Below, in pieces: positions 9,494 to 28,027 of a DNA stretch of 30,325 nt. Each line of letters begins with the position of its first letter. Position 1 is the first letter of the stretch. The stretch is from a virus. The notes below the pieces were generated by a model. The model made no database searches, was not told the origin of the DNA, and saw nothing but the letters and a program-made list of their open reading frames with translations. The stretch lies in UHGV virus genome UHGV-0061407. One strand, written 5' to 3'. Made by a program: the position numbers and the translations under genes.

Positions 9494-9554
9494 GCCTGCA
9501 TGAAACCATGCGGGCTTTTTTTTTGCCCAAAGAAAAAGCCCACCGAAGTGGGCC
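9494..9554. terminator. Back-to-back terminator hairpins (plus-strand hairpin + T9; minus-strand hairpin ggcccac-uucg-gugggc + U5)
   Basis: Plus: stem 9494-9502/9507-9515 (one G-U), loop aaac, T-run 9516-9524. Minus: stem 9538-9543/9548-9553 with UUCG-type loop, followed by T-run (complement of 9531-9537). Confidence 0.5.
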
Positions 9555-9927
9555 TTACAGCTATCATCATTTTTTATTAGGTGTGGTGCCGGGTGCCTCC
9601 CGGTAAGTCGCCGCCAGTCCACAGACGACTCGCAATGCGCAAAAAAACATATCAGACTGGCAATGCCCCTCCGCATAGGGGGATTCACCACACGGATAAT
9701 TTAGGATGTAGTCATAGGCGGCGTCAATAACTGACACTCTGTCAAAGGCACCATTACGATGCCTTTTGCACAGTGCTAATCACTGGCTCTAATAAGGGGC
9801 CAGAGCAAAGCGATTACCCCGGCTACCAGCACTCCATCAGCCAGGATTGACATCATTTTGCTGGTGAAGTCGATAGCAACCACCAGAAACAAAAGCACCC
9901 CAGCTGCGGCCCAGCGAAGTTTACCGA

Positions 9928-10796: not shown

Positions 10797-11876
10797 CTAA
10801 GGTAAGGGATTTGGTTGTGGTGGCCGGTGCTCCAGCAAATTACGCATTTCACTGACCGTCTGTTCAAATCTCTCGGTTTCCAGTTCGACACCTAGCCCCC
10901 TTCGCCCGAGAAGAGCAGCCTGCTTGAGCGTTGAGCCTGATCCAAAAAAGAAATCAGCTACAACATCACCCGGGCGGCTACTCGCTGTGATTATCTGCTC
11001 CAGCATATCCGCAGGCTTTTCACATGGGTGTTTACCTGGATAAAACTGAACAGGCTTATGAGTCCAGACGTCGGTATATGGCACCGTGACTGATACGCTG
11101 AATGGTCGCCGTAAACGGTAATATTCCTGCTGGAGTTCAGAATATTTTCGGCTTAACGATTGCCAGGTGGCGACAAGCTGGTGGTGAGGTTTTCCCAGTT
11201 CGTTGCGCGAGTGCTTATCCATGGCGATTTTTTGAAACAAAGCCTGCAACTTTAAATAATCGGCTTCGTTCGGTAGCTGCCACTGACTAAGGCCAAACCA
11301 GTGGGAAACCATATTTTTCTTACCTGTGGCTTCTGCAATCTGAGCCGACGTCACGCCAAGAGATTCCCGTGCATCACGGAAGTAAGAAATTAAAGGCGTC
11401 ATGACGTGTTGCTTTAACTCATTACACTTTGCGGCATATCCATCGTCTTTGGGCCTGTATGGCCCCTGATAATGGTCGGCAAAAATGATACGCTCAGTGG
11501 CAGGGAAATAAGCGCGTAAGCTCTCCTTATTGCAGCCGTTCCATCGCCCTGATGGCTTAGCCCAGATGATATGGTTGAGCAGGTTAAACCGCTCTCTCAC
11601 CAACAGCTCAATATCCGCTGCCAGGCGGTGCCCACAGAACAGATACATGCTGCCGGCAGGTTTTAACACTCGCCAGAACTGTGCCAGACAGCTATCCAGC
11701 CAACGTAAATAGTCTTCGTCCCCCTTCCATTGGTTATCCCAGCCGTTTGGCTTCACCTTAAAATAAGGCGGATCGGTAACAATAAGATCAATGGAGTTAT
11801 CGGGTAGCGATGGGAGGTATTGCAGGCAATCAGCATTGATTAAATCAATACTGGATATTTTTACAGTATTTTTCAT
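10797..11876 (-). CDS. Orphan DNA methyltransferase, beta-class amino-MTase (N6-adenine or N4-cytosine)
   Basis: 359 aa; motif IV DPPY (LIVTDPPYF) near N-terminus and AdoMet motif I (DFFFGSGST) near C-terminus, the order typical of beta-class MTases; no adjacent restriction endonuclease ORF. Confidence 0.85.
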   Translation of the reverse strand: MKNTVKISSIDLINADCLQYLPSLPDNSIDLIVTDPPYFKVKPNGWDNQWKGDEDYLRWLDSCLAQFWRVLKPAGSMYLFCGHRLAADIELLVRERFNLLNHIIWAKPSGRWNGCNKESLRAYFPATERIIFADHYQGPYRPKDDGYAAKCNELKQHVMTPLISYFRDARESLGVTSAQIAEATGKKNMVSHWFGLSQWQLPNEADYLKLQALFQKIAMDKHSRNELGKPHHQLVATWQSLSRKYSELQQEYYRLRRPFSVSVTVPYTDVWTHKPVQFYPGKHPCEKPADMLEQIITASSRPGDVVADFFFGSGSTLKQAALLGRRGLGVELETERFEQTVSEMRNLLEHRPPQPNPLP

Positions 11877-16192: not shown

Positions 16193-16665
16193 TCTGCCTC
16201 CAGCACTATTTTCAACTCAAACGGAACATCTCCTCCGCAATAGCAGAGCGGGCCAAGGTCAGACATGAGGCTCCACAGGGTCATTGACGTATAGCCATTT
16301 TCGTCTGTTACCGGGGGCGAAAAGTCTCCGAAGATCGCCGGGTGCTGGATTCGATTCTGCTCGTGTTGTTTTTCCAAATGTCTGAGGGAAACTTCATTAA
16401 GTTTCACTTTTACGATGCTGTTGAGATTGACCGATATTTCTCTGGCCAACAGCGAAGGGGTGATACTGATACCGCGAGAAACCCCGCGGGTGATTGTGAT
16501 AACACCCTTTTTCTCCAACGCCTTAAGGTGTGTTGCTGCTGCATTGGGGGACCGGCACCCCAGCATGCCGGTCAGTTCGTAAGTTGTAGGCGGAAAACCA
16601 TGTTTACGCTGATATTCGATCAGGAGGTCAAGGACCTCCTGCTGCCTTAAGGTCAAGGAAGTCAT
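16189..16665 (-). CDS. LexA-type winged-helix DNA-binding domain protein lacking the S24 peptidase domain
   Basis: 158 aa from ATG 16665, which overlaps the C5-MTase stop (ATGA); N-terminus LTLRQQEVLDLLIEYQRKHGFPPTTYELTGMLGCRSPNAAATHLKALEKKGVITITRG resembles the LexA N-terminal DNA-binding domain; no Ser-Lys protease motifs. Confidence 0.55.
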   Translation of the reverse strand: MTSLTLRQQEVLDLLIEYQRKHGFPPTTYELTGMLGCRSPNAAATHLKALEKKGVITITRGVSRGISITPSLLAREISVNLNSIVKVKLNEVSLRHLEKQHEQNRIQHPAIFGDFSPPVTDENGYTSMTLWSLMSDLGPLCYCGGDVPFELKIVLEAE

Positions 16666-18749
16666 GCTGCCTGCTCCTCTCTGTTCACGCACATTTCGGG
16701 TAAGTTGGCGCGTACCAGCGCTTCGGCGAACGGTGGCGGAACGGCATTGCCACAGCGCGCGACCTGCTTATCTTTCGCGTACTTCACGCCGCGGTAATCC
16801 TGGTCAATGATGTACCACTCGGGGAAGCCCTGCGCCCGGTAAAGTTCGTGTGGCTGCAGCATGCGCATGCCGATATCAACGATGCGGTAAGTCACTCCGC
16901 CGATTTCCACCAGCCCGGTGCATTCCTCTCCGCAGTATTCCTGCAGGAACGCCAGCACCTGCTGCGCGCGCTCTTCGTCGTAGTCCTCGACCGCCAGAGT
17001 CGTTTTAACCTCCCCTACGTGCTGGCCGCCGGCAGTGATAGTCGGCATCGGCTCGTCAGTAGGCTGGCCGTCACGGCAAGTACCGCGGAGCTTGACCAGA
17101 TGAGACGTAACCATTGCGGCATCAGCCTTTGTCGTCATGGTTTGCAGTGGCTCGCTAACGTCACGTGGCCTGCTCTGCCCAGCGCAACCGCCGACACCAA
17201 CAACCTGAGCAGTAACCAGCGCATGATGATCGACAGTAGTAACTGAGTGAGTAGGTTCGTCCAGGTCAATACCGGTGCCCTGGTAGTTCCCGCCATAGTG
17301 TTTTGCCAGAAATGCCCCAACAACCGCATGTTTCCCGCCACCAGCCACAACGGTACCCAGTGGCTTATCCAGTCCTGGCACACGAGGTGCCTGGCCTGGC
17401 CGTTCCCCGTATCCCGTTTGAATGAGCGTCGGCACTACCAGCTGCGATTTACCGCCACCGCCCGCGGTGATTGTTGCGCTAGGCTCATCCGCACGGTGTC
17501 CGATGCTGGCGCCGAACTGCCGGGCGATAACCGGAGCGACGACACAGGCGCGTGATTCTTTCAGGATGGTGTGAGCGGGTTTATCTAGCGGGCGTGGTTT
17601 AGCCTGGTACTCGCTGCCGCCATTGCCAGCCAGGAACGGCGCCAGCTCTGCTTCAACAATACCCAGAGCGTGACCATTCCCGCCCGGGCGTTTTGCGGTA
17701 CCGGCCGTCACCGTCGGCAACGGATCGGTGACTTCCTGCCCGGTAGCGCCGGTTCGGAATTTTGTCAGATGAGGTACCGCAATTGCGTAGCCGTGGGTTT
17801 TCGTAATCGTCTGTAGCGGATCGTCCAGCGCCTGTCCCCGGAAACAGTCATATTTGCCACGTGTCGTTGTGTGATTGCACTTCACGATGAATGGCGAAGC
17901 ACTTTCGATAACAAAGCGCTGAATGCCGCGGGCAATCCGTTTTAGCGTATTCTCTGCCAGTGACTTTTTGCGACCGAAGATGCTCGGCGCGGGGATTGAC
18001 CAGTCTATGCATTCCGCAGCTGTACGCCACGGCTCCAGCTGGCCCGCCAGCACGGCGGCAGACTTCGGATCCCCGTGCGTGGCTTCCGGCCAGACTATCG
18101 ATTTCCCGTCCCGGCGCATCACCATGAAGAACCGCTTACGGATGGTCGGCGCGCCATAATCGCAGGCGCGCAGCTCGCGAAAATCGACGACATAACCCAG
18201 CCCGGCAATTAAGCGCTTGGCCTGCTCGCTATCCGGTGAAAACTCCAGAAACTCGCAACACTCCACCAGTGCAGGATGATCTGCTGGAATACCGGTGGTA
18301 AGCATCCCGACAAATGCATTGAAAGTTTCACCGATGCGTGCCGGATCCGGTCGCATTTCTGCCGCGAGTAACGGACCCCACGTTTTAAACTCTTCGACGT
18401 TTTCCAGCATCATGACTCGCGGGCCAACATCCAGCGCCCAACGAATGACGATCCATGCCAGCCCTCGAATAGCTTTCTCTACTGGTTTAGCACCTTTCGC
18501 TTTAGAAAAGTGACGACAGTCAGGCGAGAACCATGCCAGGCCGACAGGCTTGCCACTGGTAGCGGCTAATGGGGATACATCAAACACACTTTCGCAATAG
18601 TGAAGCGTGTCGGGATGGTTAGTGCGGTGCATAGCAACGGCGTTAACATCGTGGTTAATCGCGATATCAACGCTACGCCCTATCGCCAGCTCAATACCTG
18701 TACTGGCGCCACCGCCACCAGCAAAATTATCGACAATAATCTCACGCAT
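16662..18749 (-). CDS. DNA (cytosine-5)-methyltransferase, large, with eight internal repeat modules
   Basis: 695 aa; motif I FAGGGG, PC motif (FSPDCRHFSKAKG), ENV motif (MLENVEEF), C-terminal RCGNAVPPP; central 270 aa made of eight repeats with core D-x-P-x-x-T-[IVM]-T. Confidence 0.9.
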   Translation of the reverse strand: MREIIVDNFAGGGGASTGIELAIGRSVDIAINHDVNAVAMHRTNHPDTLHYCESVFDVSPLAATSGKPVGLAWFSPDCRHFSKAKGAKPVEKAIRGLAWIVIRWALDVGPRVMMLENVEEFKTWGPLLAAEMRPDPARIGETFNAFVGMLTTGIPADHPALVECCEFLEFSPDSEQAKRLIAGLGYVVDFRELRACDYGAPTIRKRFFMVMRRDGKSIVWPEATHGDPKSAAVLAGQLEPWRTAAECIDWSIPAPSIFGRKKSLAENTLKRIARGIQRFVIESASPFIVKCNHTTTRGKYDCFRGQALDDPLQTITKTHGYAIAVPHLTKFRTGATGQEVTDPLPTVTAGTAKRPGGNGHALGIVEAELAPFLAGNGGSEYQAKPRPLDKPAHTILKESRACVVAPVIARQFGASIGHRADEPSATITAGGGGKSQLVVPTLIQTGYGERPGQAPRVPGLDKPLGTVVAGGGKHAVVGAFLAKHYGGNYQGTGIDLDEPTHSVTTVDHHALVTAQVVGVGGCAGQSRPRDVSEPLQTMTTKADAAMVTSHLVKLRGTCRDGQPTDEPMPTITAGGQHVGEVKTTLAVEDYDEERAQQVLAFLQEYCGEECTGLVEIGGVTYRIVDIGMRMLQPHELYRAQGFPEWYIIDQDYRGVKYAKDKQVARCGNAVPPPFAEALVRANLPEMCVNREEQAA

Positions 18750-19695
18750 GAGCGGTCCCCCTCATGCTGCCGACCAGCCCACCAGCAACGGTGATGATTT
18801 CGCTGGTGGGCACGCGCTCCAGCCACAACTGGTTAATGTGGGCCTTCAGCTTGTTCTGCTGGGAGAACTCCAGATCCTCTGCGCCTTGTACCTGTCCAAA
18901 GACGAGTCCAACTTCCAGTGGCCAGATCCGGGATTCAGGCTCAGCCAATGATGCAACAGCATCGGGGATGATCACTTCAGGAGACTGAACTGGCGAAACT
19001 GGTGACAGGAATTTTCCTGCAGCAAACTCAGCCAGCACCATACTTGCGCGCCCTTTTGCTTCCAGCTCAACGCGATCGATATAGCTAAAATGTTCACCGC
19101 GCCAGGTCTTATCAAATACCGCAATGGCCCCGGCAAAGAATGCGCTGGTGGGCTTCTGCTTTTCGTCGGCCGGCACAAACCACGTTGGGAGATCGAATCC
19201 AATACGACCACGAATAAACATGATGTGATCGGCATATTCCGGCCACCATGTTTCACTTGTTGCTGACTTCACGAGGTAAATGTAACGACCACCCTTTTCA
19301 CGCTGCTCGGCGGTATAGTTCATAATATGAGTCATGCCAGTGATGGCTTGTTTTTCATGGTACTGCGAACGGCTGTACGGCGGATTAGCAAAGGCAGCTC
19401 CTCCGAGTTCTACCAAACGACCAGACCAGTCCTGCGTCAGCGCATTATCTTCAGCGGTATACCATGCCGGACATTTTGTATTGCTGTCGTCTGCAAACAG
19501 GTCCAGTACCAGCGGGCCAAACATAGCGTTAACGCCCCAGAACAGCAGATCTGGTGTCCGCCATTGATCGCCAACCTCTTTCAAATAATGCGCACTGCGC
19601 TGGCGCTGTTCCTCAAGTGCCAGGCAATAAGGGTTGATGGTTTTTGTCAAAGTTTGCTCTTCTGCGGTCATAGCTTCTTGTACTTCCTGACTCAT
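18742..19695 (-). CDS. Phage Dam-like N6-adenine DNA methyltransferase
   Basis: 317 aa; motif WRTPDLLFWGVNAMFGPLVLDLFADDSN followed by FANPPYS (NPPY catalytic motif) typical of phage Dam-family N6A MTases; 8-nt overlap with C5-MTase start. Confidence 0.75.
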   Translation of the reverse strand: MSQEVQEAMTAEEQTLTKTINPYCLALEEQRQRSAHYLKEVGDQWRTPDLLFWGVNAMFGPLVLDLFADDSNTKCPAWYTAEDNALTQDWSGRLVELGGAAFANPPYSRSQYHEKQAITGMTHIMNYTAEQREKGGRYIYLVKSATSETWWPEYADHIMFIRGRIGFDLPTWFVPADEKQKPTSAFFAGAIAVFDKTWRGEHFSYIDRVELEAKGRASMVLAEFAAGKFLSPVSPVQSPEVIIPDAVASLAEPESRIWPLEVGLVFGQVQGAEDLEFSQQNKLKAHINQLWLERVPTSEIITVAGGLVGSMRGTAHA

Positions 19696-19886
19696 AGTTT
19701 TCCCCTGCGCTGATCAGCATCAACAAGTGCTCTCAGTAACCAGTAACGGCGATCAAAGCTGAAAAGGTCATCTCTGAGGAGTGCGTATTTTCTGCGAAAA
19801 ATAACGTCGTGCTGCCACCAGTAACGCCAGTGATGCAAACGCACAAGGCGCCGGAGACTTATCAAAATCTTCTTCAATCGGAGCAC
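19692..19886 (-). CDS. Hypothetical small Arg/Trp-rich protein
   Basis: 64 aa ORF filling the gap between the PerC-like and Dam-like genes with overlaps at both ends; no motif. Confidence 0.25.
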   Translation of the reverse strand: MLRLKKILISLRRLVRLHHWRYWWQHDVIFRRKYALLRDDLFSFDRRYWLLRALVDADQRRGKL

Positions 19887-20332
19887 AAGTCACCTCCGCA
19901 GTAATTTCCTGCCAGATAGCATGACCCGGCGGAATCATTCATGTTTCTGGCGTTTCGAACAGAAGCATTCTTAAGACGCAGGTACCGCTCTCTTGCTTTA
20001 GCCGTACAGTTGCTGTCACAAAGTTGCTGCCATACCGTCGCCGCACGGCGGTAATAGCGTTTCTCTTCCAGCTTTTTGGCTGTCGCTTCAAGGGCAAGAA
20101 TCTCCCCCGAAAGCCCACCAGGCAGGTACTCTTCAATATCGATGGATCCCGCTACGAAGTAGATAAACCCACCAGTAACTTCAACGCTGGCAAGTTCCCC
20201 GTCGTAGTACAGGCGATGAACAGCGCTCTTCACTGTTACCGGTTTGGTTTCAGGAAATGCCGCAGTGATATCGCGCAGCATTTTGCCTGGATTCTTCTCA
20301 ATAAATTCAAAGATCGACTTGGCTATGTTCAT
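19874..20332 (-). CDS. Hypothetical protein, possibly PerC-family regulator-like
   Basis: 152 aa; segment RYYRRAATVWQQL resembles the RRAA..W signature I associate with PerC-like prophage regulators; weak. Confidence 0.35.
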   Translation of the reverse strand: MNIAKSIFEFIEKNPGKMLRDITAAFPETKPVTVKSAVHRLYYDGELASVEVTGGFIYFVAGSIDIEEYLPGGLSGEILALEATAKKLEEKRYYRRAATVWQQLCDSNCTAKARERYLRLKNASVRNARNMNDSAGSCYLAGNYCGGDLCSD

Positions 20333-21240
20333 CCCCGGAACCCCCGTGGAATAGTGGTTTGTACTGGACTAATTGAATTAACATCCCGCGGTCTGGTTTT
20401 GTCCCACAACTCCCTTGGCGGGCGGCCTTTGGCATCCCAACGGATAGCGCTTTGCAGATATCCCTCGAATTTTTTAGGGCCGAAAAGTGTCTCGGGTCGC
20501 ATGTACTGGTATTGCTCGTCGTTGCCATGCCAGTGCTCATGTTTGACGTCGATTACCAGTTTCAAGTCGCTAACGGTATGACCTTCGCGGAGGCGCGCGC
20601 GAATGTTCTCCAGTGAGGTCTTAGATTTCTGGTAACGGGAACCGCTGACCAGATTCAGGTGTGCCAGAACTTCGATCGCGTTATCGGTAATAACAACTTC
20701 AGGATCCGGCTTATCGTCGGGTTCCGCAGGAGCCCGACAAGAAGGTTTTTTAGATGACGGATCTAATGACGGATCTAATGACGGATCGCCTTCAACCATT
20801 GAGGGGTCCTCCCGCAATATTTGAGGGGGTACAGACCCATTATTTGAGGCATCAGAATTTGACCCCTCAAATTTTGAACCCTCAAATTCTGAGGCATCAA
20901 ATTTTGATTGTTCACGTGGCGTTGCGTAGAAGATTTTTGCTTCAGCTGCTGCACGTTCCAGCATGTCAACATTGAGTTTATAAACGTTCGAATTATTCTT
21001 TCCGCCCACGCGCCGTTCCTGCTTCTTCAGCCAGCCTTTAGCCTGAAGCTTTTTGATAGCGCTGCGGACAGTATTCTCGCTCTTGGCGCCGATCTGTCGC
21101 TGAATAGTGGTTACCGCTGGCCATGACACACCTTCGTCATTACTGAAATCTGCCAGGGGAGCCATGACCGCTATTTCTGAGATTATCAGCCCTTTGAAAG
21201 CGCATGCTTCCCATACGAGGCCGTGTAATTTACTGCTCAT
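20329..21240 (-). CDS. Replication initiator / replisome-organizer-like protein (N-terminal HTH, repetitive linker, conserved phage C-terminal domain)
   Basis: 303 aa; N-terminal HTH-like segment, repetitive linker (KFDASEFEGSKFEGS, PSLDPSLDPS) coinciding with DNA iterons, C-terminal domain of the kind found in phage replication proteins. Confidence 0.65.
   Translation of the reverse strand: MSSKLHGLVWEACAFKGLIISEIAVMAPLADFSNDEGVSWPAVTTIQRQIGAKSENTVRSAIKKLQAKGWLKKQERRVGGKNNSNVYKLNVDMLERAAAEAKIFYATPREQSKFDASEFEGSKFEGSNSDASNNGSVPPQILREDPSMVEGDPSLDPSLDPSSKKPSCRAPAEPDDKPDPEVVITDNAIEVLAHLNLVSGSRYQKSKTSLENIRARLREGHTVSDLKLVIDVKHEHWHGNDEQYQYMRPETLFGPKKFEGYLQSAIRWDAKGRPPRELWDKTRPRDVNSISPVQTTIPRGFRG
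20754..20905. repeat. Iteron cluster inside the replication gene (candidate origin)
   Basis: Tandem 12-bp repeat atgacggatcta x2.8 (20754-20788); repeated atttgagg / cctcaaatt motifs in both orientations and direct 10-bp repeat tgaggcatca (20845-20854, 20890-20899). Confidence 0.5.
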
Positions 21241-21409
21241 GGCTGCCCTCTACTTCCCTGAACTTGCGTTGAAACTGATCGAGTGGGCTAAAGCACTCGT
21301 GGGAATAGCCTTCCCGCAGGTAGATGACGCGACGTGTCTCAGGCTCCCAGCGGATAACTCTGACTGGATTGCCATAGTGGTCTTTGAACTTCCGGTTAAC
21401 TTCTCGCAT
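21230..21409 (-). CDS. Hypothetical small protein (59 aa), not in ORF track
   Basis: ATG at 21409 with GGAGGG RBS about 10 nt upstream; MREVNRKFKDHYGNPVRVIRWEPETRRVIYLREGYSHECFSPLDQFQRKFREVEGSHEQ; stop overlaps the start of the replication gene. Confidence 0.4.
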   Translation of the reverse strand: MREVNRKFKDHYGNPVRVIRWEPETRRVIYLREGYSHECFSPLDQFQRKFREVEGSHEQ

Positions 21410-21581: not shown

Positions 21582-22130
21582 TTATTTCTCCATACACAAA
21601 GATTTATTCGCCACGACGCCCGGAGCTGCACACTCGCGGGCGTCACTCTTTTCTGGCAGACAATAAACACGAGAAATCAGGTTGAGAAACGTCATCAACG
21701 TGACCCGGAACTGGTAGGCGATATCATTCAGGCTTTGCCACTCGCCATGTGTAACCACCCCATCATCGATATATTCCCGATAGGCGCTGACCAACTCGCC
21801 AAGCTGACCCACCAGCTCCGCCAGCTTCAAACCAATCTCTTCGTTCTCGTCTTCATGAGCAGCGCCAGATACATGGATTCCGTTGTCGGTTTCACGCGAA
21901 AAAACATCGGCGATGTAGCTAACACCTGCGGCCTTCTGCAAGACCATTGCCCAGCCCATAGGGAATATCTGATCTCCACCAGCACGCAGTCGGTTAAAGA
22001 TCGCGTCCTGGGTGGTATCCAGAATCTCAGCGGCTTCGATATAGCCACCAGGTAACGCGGCTATTGTTTTACGGATCGCCGCCCCCAGCCATGCTGGCTG
22101 CTTTTCGACTTTCCAGTGTTGTTCAATCAT
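21582..22130 (-). CDS. CII-like phage regulatory protein (tentative)
   Basis: 182 aa ORF in the position of cII/early regulators between cro and the replication gene; family assignment from general resemblance only. Confidence 0.4.
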   Translation of the reverse strand: MIEQHWKVEKQPAWLGAAIRKTIAALPGGYIEAAEILDTTQDAIFNRLRAGGDQIFPMGWAMVLQKAAGVSYIADVFSRETDNGIHVSGAAHEDENEEIGLKLAELVGQLGELVSAYREYIDDGVVTHGEWQSLNDIAYQFRVTLMTFLNLISRVYCLPEKSDARECAAPGVVANKSLCMEK

Positions 22131-22196
22131 TGCTCTATACCTCTGTTGGTGTATGATTTCTAAATCAATGACCTATCGAAAAAAACGGGATAAAAA

Positions 22197-22520
22197 ATGC
22201 AGAACCCGCTCGCCAAACTTTCCCTGGATTACTGGTACAAAGTTATGATCCTGATAGGCGCTTTTATTTTTCTTCTCAACGGTGCCGGACTCCTTCCCGC
22301 GTACCCCACAGCAGTCACAGGCTTCATATCCTCTGGACTTTTCTTTTGGGGTCTTGGCGAATGGATGAATCACCCTTATCAGGAGGTGTTGACCTTGGAT
22401 CCCTTTAACCGTCCGACTGGCAAGATATCTGGGCATCCACGGAACGCCTGTCTTATTGGGAATATCTTTGATTTGATTGGATTCGTACTGATCATCACAG
22501 GGCTGATTAAACTCTTCTAA
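22197..22520 (+). CDS. Small membrane protein (3 predicted TM segments), opposite orientation to early-right operon
   Basis: 107 aa with three clean hydrophobic helices; an overlapping minus-strand ORF (22173..22625) has K/E/Q/N-rich composition expected for the antisense shadow of a membrane-protein gene. Confidence 0.4.
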   Translation: MQNPLAKLSLDYWYKVMILIGAFIFLLNGAGLLPAYPTAVTGFISSGLFFWGLGEWMNHPYQEVLTLDPFNRPTGKISGHPRNACLIGNIFDLIGFVLIITGLIKLF

Positions 22521-22669
22521 ATGCCAGCCAATCAGGGTAACCGTTCGGCCATCATGACTATGCTTTACCGAACCGGGTGCAAGATTTTCCAGCACTTGAA
22601 ACATATTCTTAAGCTTGTCCCCCACTGCTTACCCCCTACGTCTGTGGTTAACGCTGCTAAAACCAAATG

Positions 22670-22870
22670 TTATTGTTTGGAATAGATATCTGGTCGGAGA
22701 TCAAACTTCGTGATCGCACCGGATGTGCTTTTTTCCAGTTTTTTTGCCAGATCAAATCCGGCTTTTTTGTAGCCGTTAAAAACTAAACGCAGATAACCGG
22801 GTGTAGAGCCAACGTTTGCAGCTAAATTGCTTTGTTGCTCTTTAGTTAATGAATCCCAGAACTCTTTCAT
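22670..22870 (-). CDS. cro: Cro-like repressor (HTH)
   Basis: 66 aa from ATG 22870 with AGGAGG RBS lying inside operator O1; divergent from cI; HTH-like segment QSNLAANVGSTPGYLRLVFNG. Confidence 0.65.
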   Translation of the reverse strand: MKEFWDSLTKEQQSNLAANVGSTPGYLRLVFNGYKKAGFDLAKKLEKSTSGAITKFDLRPDIYSKQ

Positions 22871-22873
22871 ATA

Positions 22874-22940
22874 TGTACCTCCTGTGTACATATTACACGA
22901 AAGAAATGAACCTTCAAGGCACTTGTACCTAGGAGGTACA
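22874..22940. promoter_or_regulatory. Right operator region: two 17-bp operators tgtacc-N5-(g/t)gtaca between cro and cI
   Basis: O1 22874-22890 tgtacctcctgtgtaca; O2 22924-22940 tgtacctaggaggtaca (perfect palindromic half-sites). Confidence 0.5.
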
Positions 22941-22957: not shown

Positions 22958-23632
22958 ATGAAAACAATCCAGGAAATCAGGCGGTTAAACGCCAGAAAAT
23001 TGCGTGATGGTGTTGGCGGTAATATTTACTTCGCCAATATGATTGATCGCGAGCCGACTCAAACCAGCCGGTTCATGGGAGATGGCGCCACTAAAAACAT
23101 CGGCGATGCAATGGCAAGGCACATTGAAAAGTGTTTTGACTTACCTACTGGGTGGTTAGATCAGGAACATCAAACCACTAATGTTGCTAAAACGCCCGAT
23201 GTCTCTGATACATATAGAAATATCACCATGGTTCCGGTTATATCCTGGGTACAAGCAGGAGCATGGACCGAAGTTGGCTATGCTGAGGTTGATTTGAATA
23301 GCACTGAAAACTATCCATGCCCTGTTCCTTGTGGGCCGATGACTTATATTCTTCGTGTTATTGGCGACTCAATGATCGACGAATATCGGCCCGGTGATAT
23401 GATTTTTGTTGATCCCGAAGTTCCAGCAGTGCATGGAGATGATGTGATCGCCTTAATGCACGATTCTGGTGAGACTACATTTAAACGGTTGATTGAAGAT
23501 GCAGGACAACGCTATCTAAAAGCACTTAACTCAAACTGGCCAGAACCTTACATCAAAATCAATGGTAATTGCTCTATCATTGGTACCGTAATTTTTTCCG
23601 GTAAACCAAGACGATACCGAACGAAAACATAA
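22958..23632 (+). CDS. cI: CI-type prophage repressor with C-terminal S24 (LexA-like) autopeptidase domain
   Basis: 224 aa; N-terminal HTH region, C-terminal S24 motifs (VIGDSM serine, FKRL lysine); divergent from cro. Confidence 0.85.
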   Translation: MKTIQEIRRLNARKLRDGVGGNIYFANMIDREPTQTSRFMGDGATKNIGDAMARHIEKCFDLPTGWLDQEHQTTNVAKTPDVSDTYRNITMVPVISWVQAGAWTEVGYAEVDLNSTENYPCPVPCGPMTYILRVIGDSMIDEYRPGDMIFVDPEVPAVHGDDVIALMHDSGETTFKRLIEDAGQRYLKALNSNWPEPYIKINGNCSIIGTVIFSGKPRRYRTKT

Positions 23633-27049: not shown

Positions 27050-27249
27050 TGGCACATGTGAAAGTGAAAGAATTGGTTGCTGCAGCATACGCTGCAGCAC
27101 CTGACCTACCACCAGCAGCAGCACAATTAATGCAAGACATAGCGTCAAGGCTGGATGTGACCTTTGTCGCCCTTACAGAGGCAATGGACCAGAACACCGC
27201 TATGGCCGCGATGATAGCGAACCTGAGCGAGGAAAACAGAAATGGCTAA
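27049..27249 (+). CDS. Hypothetical small protein
   Basis: 66 aa; start overlaps previous stop (TAATG) and stop overlaps next start, indicating translational coupling. Confidence 0.45.
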   Translation: MAHVKVKELVAAAYAAAPDLPPAAAQLMQDIASRLDVTFVALTEAMDQNTAMAAMIANLSEENRNG

Positions 27250-28027
27250 AAACTCGATCGATGCTTATGGCGCCAGCGGCAAGACAAACGTTCTGATGTT
27301 CGAGCCGGAAAATCTGCATATTGTCACTGACAAGGCCCACCCGCTTTACGATGAGCGAGTCAATCTGCCGATCGATGAAGGGATGGTGCTGAATATCAAA
27401 GAGCTGGGTGTTCTTGAGCCGATTATTGTCTGGAAAGACCCTGAAAAGGGGCTCACCTGTGTGGTTGTCGGTCGTCAGCGCGTTAAACATACGCTGGAAG
27501 CCAATAAGCTCCTGCTGAAAGAAGGCAAAACACCGCTGCTTGTTCCTGGAGTCGTTAAGCGTGGGTCGGCAAACCAAATGGCCAAATATATGGTCAGCGA
27601 AAACGAAATCCGCCGACCTGATACGCCACTAGGTCGAGCTAAGAAAATGTCAGACGCGCTGGATCGTGGTCATGACGAGGACGACCTTGCGGTGTTGTTT
27701 GGCTGTAGCGTTCAGACTGTCCGTGCAACGCTGTCACTACTCGATGCTACCCAGGCTGTTCGGGAAGCGGTGGAGTCTGGCACAGTTACCGTTACCCAGG
27801 CGCGTCAGCTTGGCGCGCTCCCACCTGAAGAGCAGCGGGCAAAAGTGGCAGAAATCGAGCTGGCGACAGCTGGTACCAAAGGCCATGAAAAATCCCGTCG
27901 GCAGCGTCAGGTTCTCGGTGAGGCAAAGCCGCGCATCAAATCGCGTAAGGAAATAACTAAAGCCCTTGAAGATGCCAGCGGCGAATATGCCGAGGCTCTG
28001 CGCTGGGTAATTGGGGAGGCGCAATGA
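27242..28027 (+). CDS. ParB-like nuclease/partition-domain protein
   Basis: 261 aa; ParB-box-like segment LGVLEPIIVWKDPEKGLTCVVVGRQRVKH and HTH-like LAVLFGCSVQTVRATL. Confidence 0.65.
   Translation: MAKNSIDAYGASGKTNVLMFEPENLHIVTDKAHPLYDERVNLPIDEGMVLNIKELGVLEPIIVWKDPEKGLTCVVVGRQRVKHTLEANKLLLKEGKTPLLVPGVVKRGSANQMAKYMVSENEIRRPDTPLGRAKKMSDALDRGHDEDDLAVLFGCSVQTVRATLSLLDATQAVREAVESGTVTVTQARQLGALPPEEQRAKVAEIELATAGTKGHEKSRRQRQVLGEAKPRIKSRKEITKALEDASGEYAEALRWVIGEAQ

Follow-up and report, generated by a model that had tools for sequence, protein, structure and literature searches.

An iteron array inside an initiator gene as the candidate replication origin of a lambdoid Klebsiella-type prophage

The 30,325-nucleotide viral genome UHGV-0061407 (the whole stretch, hereafter the window) carries a cluster of short tandem repeats inside rep, the gene for its replication initiator Rep. 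Judged by sequence comparison, the segment at 20744-20907 is probably the replication origin of a lambdoid Klebsiella-type prophage, situated inside the linker-coding part of its own initiator gene. The repeats exist, are unique to this site, are conserved at the nucleotide level throughout the family and form one module with the N-terminal domain (N-domain) of Rep. Because they are real and kept constant as DNA, the prophage origin very probably lies within the initiator gene. An earlier note on this DNA had put forward the cluster as a candidate phage origin, and comparative evidence supports this proposal through the identity of the initiator, the universal presence of the array, the nucleotide constraint and the modular association with the N-domain.

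The repeat cluster described inside the initiator gene in the earlier note was recovered with all of its listed motifs. The roughly 2.8 tandem copies are ATGACGGATCTA repeated 2.8 times at 20754-20787 with 100% identity (Tandem Repeats Finder, TRF, score 68). The motifs of 8 and 9 bp occur in both orientations, as ATTTGAGG at 20842-20849, TATTTGAGG at 20818-20826 and CCTCAAATT at 20865-20873 and 20880-20888. The direct 10-bp repeat TGAGGCATCA is located at 20845-20854 and 20890-20899, and the repetitive peptides PSLDPSLDPS and EFEGSKFEGS are both present in the minus-strand open reading frame (ORF) at 20329-21240. The 8-bp and 10-bp motifs are better seen as a single array with a 15-bp period at 20842-20907 (4.3 copies by TRF). 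Each unit comprises an 11-bp palindromic core, TCAAAWTTTGA, and four variable bases, and the array contains four good units and two weaker in-phase units with internal dyad symmetry (Table 1). The sixth unit is in exact phase, 45 bp (3 x 15) past the fifth, with a matching motif TCAATGGTTGA at 20792-20802, and its sequence TCAATGGTTGAAGGC is similar to the TCAATGGTTGAC units of a relative (locus L108). The spacer at 20803-20832 is part of an imperfect 23-bp repeat. The three 12-mers at 20752-20787 may constitute an unwinding element or a second class of binding site, and the 40-mer at 20740-20779 is locally unstable (z = +2.06).

The period-15 and 12-bp arrays are the two top-scoring ones in the window for periods of 6-40, with scores of 23.5 and 22.0, whereas 100 first-order Markov simulations reached at most 12.5 and 11.5. 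With at most one mismatch, the core occurs four times in the window, always within 20852-20907, against 0.93 expected, while GATCCGTCA occurs three times, always in the element, against 0.25 expected. Among public records, Klebsiella phage Kp4866-6 comes closest, with 99% identity in rep; a megablast search of the rep gene against complete Escherichia coli genomes gave no match. In the complete 45.5-kb Kp4866-6 genome the cluster is likewise unique to the rep gene, and the sole core match outside it is an isolated one with one mismatch. No other iteron-like cluster was found in the window or in the complete Kp4866-6 genome.

The repeats are conserved in relatives. In total, 160 loci with the same N-domain, 80 of them in species-representative genomes and the other 80 in viral contigs, were pooled with the retrieved phage records and the window gene, yielding 123 non-redundant genes. 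These originate from Klebsiella, Enterobacter, Escherichia/Shigella (SfIV), Yersinia, Providencia, Proteus, Pantoea and others, out to Gilliamella. An array with a 15-bp period is present in 123 of the 123 genes, starting at gene nucleotides 285-345 and comprising 2-9 copies. The median period-15 score is 20.5, compared with 3.5-4 in the N- and C-terminal domains, and periods of 9, 12, 18 and 21 reach just 3.5-5. The motif GATCCGTCA is present in 107 of the 123 relatives. Comparing repeat number across related prophages, as the earlier note had suggested, revealed whole-unit differences among close relatives; two near-identical Klebsiella phages differ by exactly one 15-bp unit.

The most conserved bases of the array are those that matter least to the protein. 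Registration of 510 units by amino-acid pattern alone gave the family-wide consensus TCA RAW WYT GAY SSN. Of all positions in the unit, the wobble base at position 3 is the most conserved, with A in 99% of the units (1.90 bits), and the wobble base at position 9 is T in 93%. Where the first codon does not specify Ser, it is GCA, AGA, CCA or TTA; the amino acid differs and the A stays. Similarly, the third codon stays NNT across Ser, Phe, Ile, Val, Asn, Pro, Thr and Tyr. Synonymous choice within the units is close to absolute (Ser TCA in 418 of 425, Lys AAA in 272 of 272, Asn AAT in 88 of 88, Glu GAA in 63 of 63 and Phe TTT in 93 of 98), whereas the N-domains of the same genes use AAA for 53% of Lys, TTT for 14% of Phe and AGC for 36% of Ser. 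The consensus units of individual clades differ slightly (TCAAAATCTGACgCg, TCAAaaaTTGACCCg and TCAAAATTTGAgGgc), and the covariation between recognition-helix residues and the iteron consensus across three clades is too slight to serve as an argument.

The same constraint is evident among 20 close relatives of the window gene. At third positions, the N-domain has a nucleotide diversity of 0.29 and the C-terminal domain one of 0.32; the array has 0.083, the spacer 0.000 and the 12-mers 0.017, and the core positions of the iterons show near-zero diversity. Across gene nucleotides 403-453 the third-position diversity is 0.000, with second positions variable. Polymorphic third positions amount to 8 of 52 in the element (gene nucleotides 334-489) and 178 of 251 outside it (Fisher p = 8.5e-14), whereas first and second positions are polymorphic at similar rates (14 of 104 inside versus 71 of 502 outside, p = 1). 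Accordingly, polymorphic codons with synonymous changes only and those with amino-acid changes stand at 2:19 in the element and 133:56 outside. Two other clades also show the third-position dip, which reaches approximately 100-150 nt beyond the array. Since third positions are constrained and first and second positions are unaffected, the segment is under purifying selection as nucleotides, with the protein comparatively free. On these comparisons, the element is almost certainly DNA under selection.

The location of the array is compatible with this freedom of the protein. The earlier note had placed the repeats in the linker-coding part of the gene, and this agrees with the AlphaFold2 (AF2) model: the array encodes residues 112-163, and residues 109-173 are predicted to be a disordered linker (predicted local distance difference test score, pLDDT, below 50) joining the winged helix of residues 1-105 to a helical domain. 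Such disorder would let the DNA element dictate the codons at small cost to the protein. For the most part, the peptide repeats (SKFEG..., DPSL...) are by-products of the DNA element, and the protein tolerates them because the linker is disordered. The segment offers a clean example of a DNA element that dictates the sequence of a disordered protein linker.

The array behaves as a module with the N-domain. The N-domain, array and GATC block are co-inherited with at least four kinds of C-terminal region: the N-domain and array are fused to Phg_2220_C in 78 genes, to a lambda-O-type C-terminal domain in 43, and also to two C-terminal regions of neither type. These regions were classified against two reference domains, as single-linkage clustering merged almost all of them and was uninformative. 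The Rep of SfIV, for example, matches lambda O over its C-terminal half (E = 1e-25). Phg_2220_C initiators with unrelated N-domains have different repeats at this place in the linker, four to six copies of approximately 23 bp each. Such arrays were located in mEp390 (L168, 1308-1447), Salmonella phage F1055 (L170, 971-1152) and Providencia phage PSTCR8lys (L171, 980-1171), and in all three a 12-bp repeat comes next, in two or three copies. Since 12-bp repeats also follow these unrelated iterons, an arrangement of iterons and then 12-mers looks like the shared origin architecture of the Phg_2220_C initiator class. As far as the sequences indicate, the pattern of co-inheritance and copy number is the behaviour of an initiator-specific binding-site array.

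The encoded protein is a replication initiator. Rep contains two Pfam domains, an N-terminal winged helix (HTH_36, residues 22-71) and a C-terminal Phg_2220_C domain (PF09524, residues 191-263; 82.1 bits against a cut-off of 27, 3.1e-23), and the latter also matches TIGR02220 (69.5 bits against a cut-off of 66.65). Rep matches PHROG 428 'replication initiation protein' (6e-63) and PHROG 11896; its residues 1-170 match PHROG 391 'replication initiation O-like' (2e-29), and its C-terminal half matches PHROG 1701 'DnaD-like helicase loader' (8e-9). These profile matches place Rep, by its C-terminal domain, among the Phg_2220_C/DnaD-like phage replication proteins. In the AF2 model, the N-domain comprises helices at residues 2-16, 20-33, 43-50 and 55-67, a beta-hairpin wing (71-74/86-89) and a helix at 91-105, and the helical C-terminal domain spans residues 180-270. 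A Foldseek search of the N-domain against the PDB returned weak matches (E >= 0.028), all of them winged-helix proteins and DnaD among them, the DnaD match being the integrative model 9a5c_B (the crystal structure of the DnaD N-domain is 2v79). These matches to a predicted model are useful for the fold class and identify no iteron-binding homologue. A search of solved structures with the Rep sequence gave MarR matches alone, which were insignificant.

A protein search with the initiator gave 1430 protein clusters at E <= 1e-10, and a single cluster at 90% identity holds 1003 sequences. In public records, members of this family are named 'conserved phage C-terminal domain-containing protein', in many cases 'GntR family transcriptional regulator', and rarely 'replication protein O'. 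The GntR label is probably a mis-annotation of the initiator family, caused by the winged-helix domain. The extreme C-terminal tail of Rep (20329-20352) reads IPxGFRG, is common to 90 of the 123 non-redundant Reps and spans two unrelated types of C-terminal domain, Phg_2220_C and the lambda-O type. The tail may act as a short motif for the docking of a partner, whether of the host or of the phage.

The mechanism that we consider most likely is modelled on lambda O at ori-lambda and gp38 of phage SPP1 at oriL; we infer Rep binding, melting at the 12-mers and recruitment of the host helicase, as well as any role for Dam methylation. The winged-helix N-domain of Rep would bind the five or six 15-bp iterons through the core TCAAAWTTTGA, with its alternating TCA/TGA half-sites, and Rep assembled on the iterons would form an oligomeric nucleoprotein complex. 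This complex would destabilise the adjoining three GATC-bearing 12-mers and the short A-tract, and the Phg_2220_C (DnaD-like) domain would bring in the host helicase machinery. A wider, joint reading is tentative and rather doubtful. It would make the element the origin of a very widespread class of Enterobacterales prophage replicons, with a single initiator that has no dedicated loader and with unusually short, palindromic 15-bp iterons; the triple GATC 12-mer would be a methylation-gated unwinding element under the phage Dam gene of the operon, and the IPxGFRG tail would be a docking motif for the host helicase system.

Intragenic lambda-type origins are a well-known textbook concept, which is unchanged here. 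The likeness to ori-lambda drawn in the earlier note stands for the intragenic position in the linker-coding part and for the tandem iterons, and fails for a strongly AT-rich tract and a neighbouring gene for a P-type loader. The lambda origin is situated within gene O and has four iterons, while Stx phages have six, with 13 extra residues in O (PMC7466680). The shared features are numerous: in lambda and in Stx phages such as P27 and 933W, the origin is also in the middle of the initiator gene, right after the N-terminal DNA-binding domain, and its tandem iterons number four to six and are internally dyad-symmetric. The four annotated ori-lambda iterons encode residues 117-145 of O, close to the place of the window array in Rep. 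In both systems the number of iterons varies among relatives, adding or removing initiator amino acids, the N-domain and iterons recombine as one module with C-terminal domains of different kinds, and the operon runs cro, cII, initiator. The differences concern the protein, the spacing and the surroundings. A BLASTP comparison of lambda O with the window Rep is not significant (best E 0.48), and the Pfam domains of Rep are HTH_36 and Phg_2220_C. Judged by these comparisons, Rep falls outside the lambda O family in the strict sense, its N-domain being related at the PHROG-profile level only. The lambda iterons are 18 bp long at a spacing of 20-24 bp, whereas the window units are contiguous and 15 bp long. 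Lambda has a 40-bp AT-rich tract, in the place of which the window has three GATC-bearing 12-mers, and PerC-like and Dam genes follow rep instead of a P-type loader gene.

A second precedent is oriL of SPP1, where the initiator gp38 binds direct repeats in its own gene 38, beside an unwinding element (PMC6316719). The window likewise has direct repeats within its own initiator gene that adjoin a candidate unwinding element. Unlike the prophage considered here, SPP1 is a lytic phage of a Gram-positive host (Bacillus) that has a further copy of its origin, oriR, and encodes both a loader (gp39) and a helicase (gp40); no such origin copy or phage helicase was found here. The unwinding element of E. 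coli oriC consists of three 13-mers, each beginning with GATC, and the origin of plasmid P1 is Dam-dependent. The window resembles these systems in having three short tandem repeats that begin with GATC beside the presumed initiator sites, here with a Dam gene in the operon; its 12-mers, by contrast, are only ~58% AT, with no DnaA box nearby. The iterons of theta plasmids (RepA, pi or RepE type) are usually 17-22 bp long and intergenic, with DnaA boxes alongside. The window shares with these plasmids the tandem iterons and a winged-helix initiator, whose recognition of the iterons is presumed, and differs in the 15-bp length, the intragenic position and the lack of a nearby DnaA box. A DnaA-dependent iteron origin of the plasmid or oriC type was ruled against, as there is no DnaA box beside the iterons.

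Several observations weigh against an origin at this site. No strongly AT-rich tract like that of lambda was found: the 12-mer region has ~43% GC and an instability of z = +2 only. The least stable DNA of the window is intergenic and lies elsewhere, and the least stable stretch of rep (20963-21002) is on the opposite side of the array from the 12-mers. Across the family, the GC content dips to 0.39-0.42 at 45-75 nt past the array, a modest dip. The 15-bp spacing is short for iterons and lacks helical phasing. There is no DnaA box nearby, TTWTNCACA occurring in the window at 9764 and 24994 alone, which is at chance level. The P-type loader gene is absent beside rep, where PerC-like, Dam and C5-methyltransferase genes lie downstream, and none of the genes in the window codes for a helicase, a helicase loader or a primase. 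No paper was found with a mapped origin or a footprint for this initiator family, and the literature likewise yielded no origin mapping for SfII-, SfIV- or SfV-type or Phg_2220_C-type initiators of enterobacterial phages; the phage records fetched bear no origin or repeat feature at this gene. The GATC enrichment could also be a side effect of the conserved GAYCCGTCA/Asp-Pro-Ser motif. GATC sites occur at 19 per kb in the 165 nt after the array, compared with 3.3 per kb in the rest of the gene, and of 121 relatives at least 63 carry a gene of the Dam type no more than ~1 kb downstream of rep. Codon usage lends no independent support to selection for GATC itself, since GAT accounts for 64% of the Asp codons after the array and 61% of those in the C-terminal domain. 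In view of these observations, the link between the phage Dam gene and the GATC cluster, and with it any role of methylation, stays speculative. The densest GATC cluster of the window is at 20674-20787, with five sites in 114 bp.

The nucleotide constraint shows that the DNA has a function and does not tell which one, and the segment might therefore be a selected cis-acting element other than an origin. Such an element could be an autoregulatory or roadblock site at which Rep throttles its own operon, or it could hold sites for another protein, PerC-like, ParB-like or SeqA. The absence of a strong AT-rich tract would fit this alternative, SeqA or Dam-dependent regulation could make use of a GATC cluster, and a ParB-like protein is encoded at 27242-28027. 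We nevertheless regard it as unlikely. The element always accompanies the Rep N-domain and changes when the N-domain changes, and the PerC-like gene is found directly 3' of rep in just 34 of 121 relatives. Moreover, iterons followed by short repeats in an initiator linker reproduce the layout of the mapped origins of lambda and SPP1, and the whole genome of the related Kp4866-6 offers no alternative origin-like cluster.

Two further explanations were weighed. The region encodes a predicted disordered linker, varies in copy number by whole units and has a loose peptide pattern, S-x-x-[DE]-x, common to the family, all of which would suit a low-complexity, flexible linker rich in Ser, Asp and Lys that was expanded by replication slippage, the DNA itself having no function. 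The wobble bases, however, are the most conserved of all and remain fixed while the amino acid changes, synonymous choice is near-absolute in contrast to the rest of the same genes, and the ratio of synonymous to non-synonymous polymorphism is inverted. The spread over many genera, with N-domains 43-60% identical to that of the window, also argues against an artefact of recent descent. The wobble and codon constraint therefore excludes a mere repetitive linker, and we give this explanation next to no weight. A constraint acting on the mRNA, through translational pausing or structure, or a recombination hotspot whose recent spread cut diversity, is very improbable. Folded as single-stranded DNA, the region pairs strongly with itself (DNA fold z = -4.8), and it lies at the junction of exchangeable modules. 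This self-complementarity, however, is a direct consequence of the palindromic 11-bp units, and a recent sweep would cut diversity at all codon positions, whereas the first and second positions vary as elsewhere. The motif is also kept across deeply diverged clades, and no Rfam family matches the element. The reading as a replication origin within the initiator gene is thus the one that we favour.

The genomic context of rep is that of a lambdoid early-right operon (Table 1). The start of the PerC-like gene overlaps the stop of rep (ATGA), which suggests translational coupling. This gene matches PHROG 1324 'transcriptional activator' and occupies the place of lambda P, and SfIV has a PerC-domain gene at the corresponding place. 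Beyond the Dam gene come genes for a C5-methyltransferase, RusA and a Q-like protein, and then those for lysis, terminase and portal. A promoter and terminator scan of the rep region gave nothing above chance.

Table 1. Parts of the candidate origin, domains of Rep and neighbouring operon genes in the window
Feature	Position	Strand	Basis or remark
Four contiguous 15-bp iterons (coding strand) TCAAAATTTGATGCC / TCAGAATTTGAGGGT / TCAAAATTTGAGGGG / TCAAATTCTGATGCC	20848-20907	minus	TRF, repeat scan
Fifth, degenerate in-phase unit TCAAATAATGGGTCT	20833-20847	minus	nucleotide diversity (pi) 0.0-0.1 at all 15 positions, 20 close relatives
Conserved 30-bp spacer with reverse-orientation iteron-like motif (coding strand CCCCCTCAAATATTG)	20803-20832	minus	repeat scan
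Sixth, distal unit TCAATGGTTGAAGGC	20788-20802	minus	invariant in clade
Three 12-mers GATCCGTCATTA / GATCCGTCATTA / GATCCGTCATCT, Dam site in each	20752-20787	minus	TRF, repeat scan; diversity 0.016
Short A-tract TCTAAAAAACC, end of element	20744-20754	minus	stability scan
rep, 303-residue replication initiator	20329-21240	minus	ORF list, Pfam, PHROG
N-terminal winged-helix domain of Rep, residues 1-105, presumed iteron-binding	20926-21240	minus	AF2 model
Phg_2220_C (DnaD-like) C-terminal domain of Rep, presumed host-replisome recruitment module	20452-20670	minus	Pfam, TIGR02220, PHROG 1701
cI-like repressor	22958-23632	plus	ORF list, Pfam, PHROG
cro-like gene	22670-22891	minus	ORF list, Pfam, PHROG
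cII-like gene	21582-22130	minus	ORF list, Pfam, PHROG
DUF4222 gene, just upstream of rep in operon order	21230-21409	minus	ORF list, Pfam, PHROG
PerC-like small gene, start overlapping the rep stop	19874-20332	minus	ORF list, Pfam, PHROG
Dam-type N6-adenine methyltransferase, same operon, two genes downstream of rep	18742-19695	minus	Pfam PF05869, 1.1e-42

What is newly described here is a family-specific candidate origin with its nucleotide-level signature and a shared architecture of iterons and 12-mers, a useful and unsurprising addition. It supplies a precise candidate origin for an initiator family that is very common in Klebsiella, Enterobacter, Escherichia, Shigella, Yersinia and related genera. 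Knowledge of the origin helps in building mini-replicons and in reading the read-depth profiles of induction, and it would aid the study of incompatibility or exclusion between co-resident prophages.

Other features of the window were also observed. An AT-rich patch (GC 0.35 at 22100-22250) lies between the cro-like and cII-like genes (22100-22625), together with an overlapping pair of ORFs at 22173-22625 (minus strand) and 22197-22520 (plus strand), the latter resembling a small membrane protein. Because neither ORF of this pair matches PHROG, the interval may be a moron insertion. The window contains three DNA methyltransferase genes (10797-11876, 16662-18749 and 18742-19695), one of which encodes a C5-methyltransferase of 695 residues. 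A 25-bp tandem repeat of 1.9 copies (TRF score 75) is located at 16625-16672, where the C5-methyltransferase gene meets the next ORF, and is also present in Kp4866-6 (L169, 27322-27369). In the late/lysis region, the minus strand at 9525-9722 gives a full-length match to the Rfam small RNA family STnc100, with 99.8 bits against a gathering score of 47.

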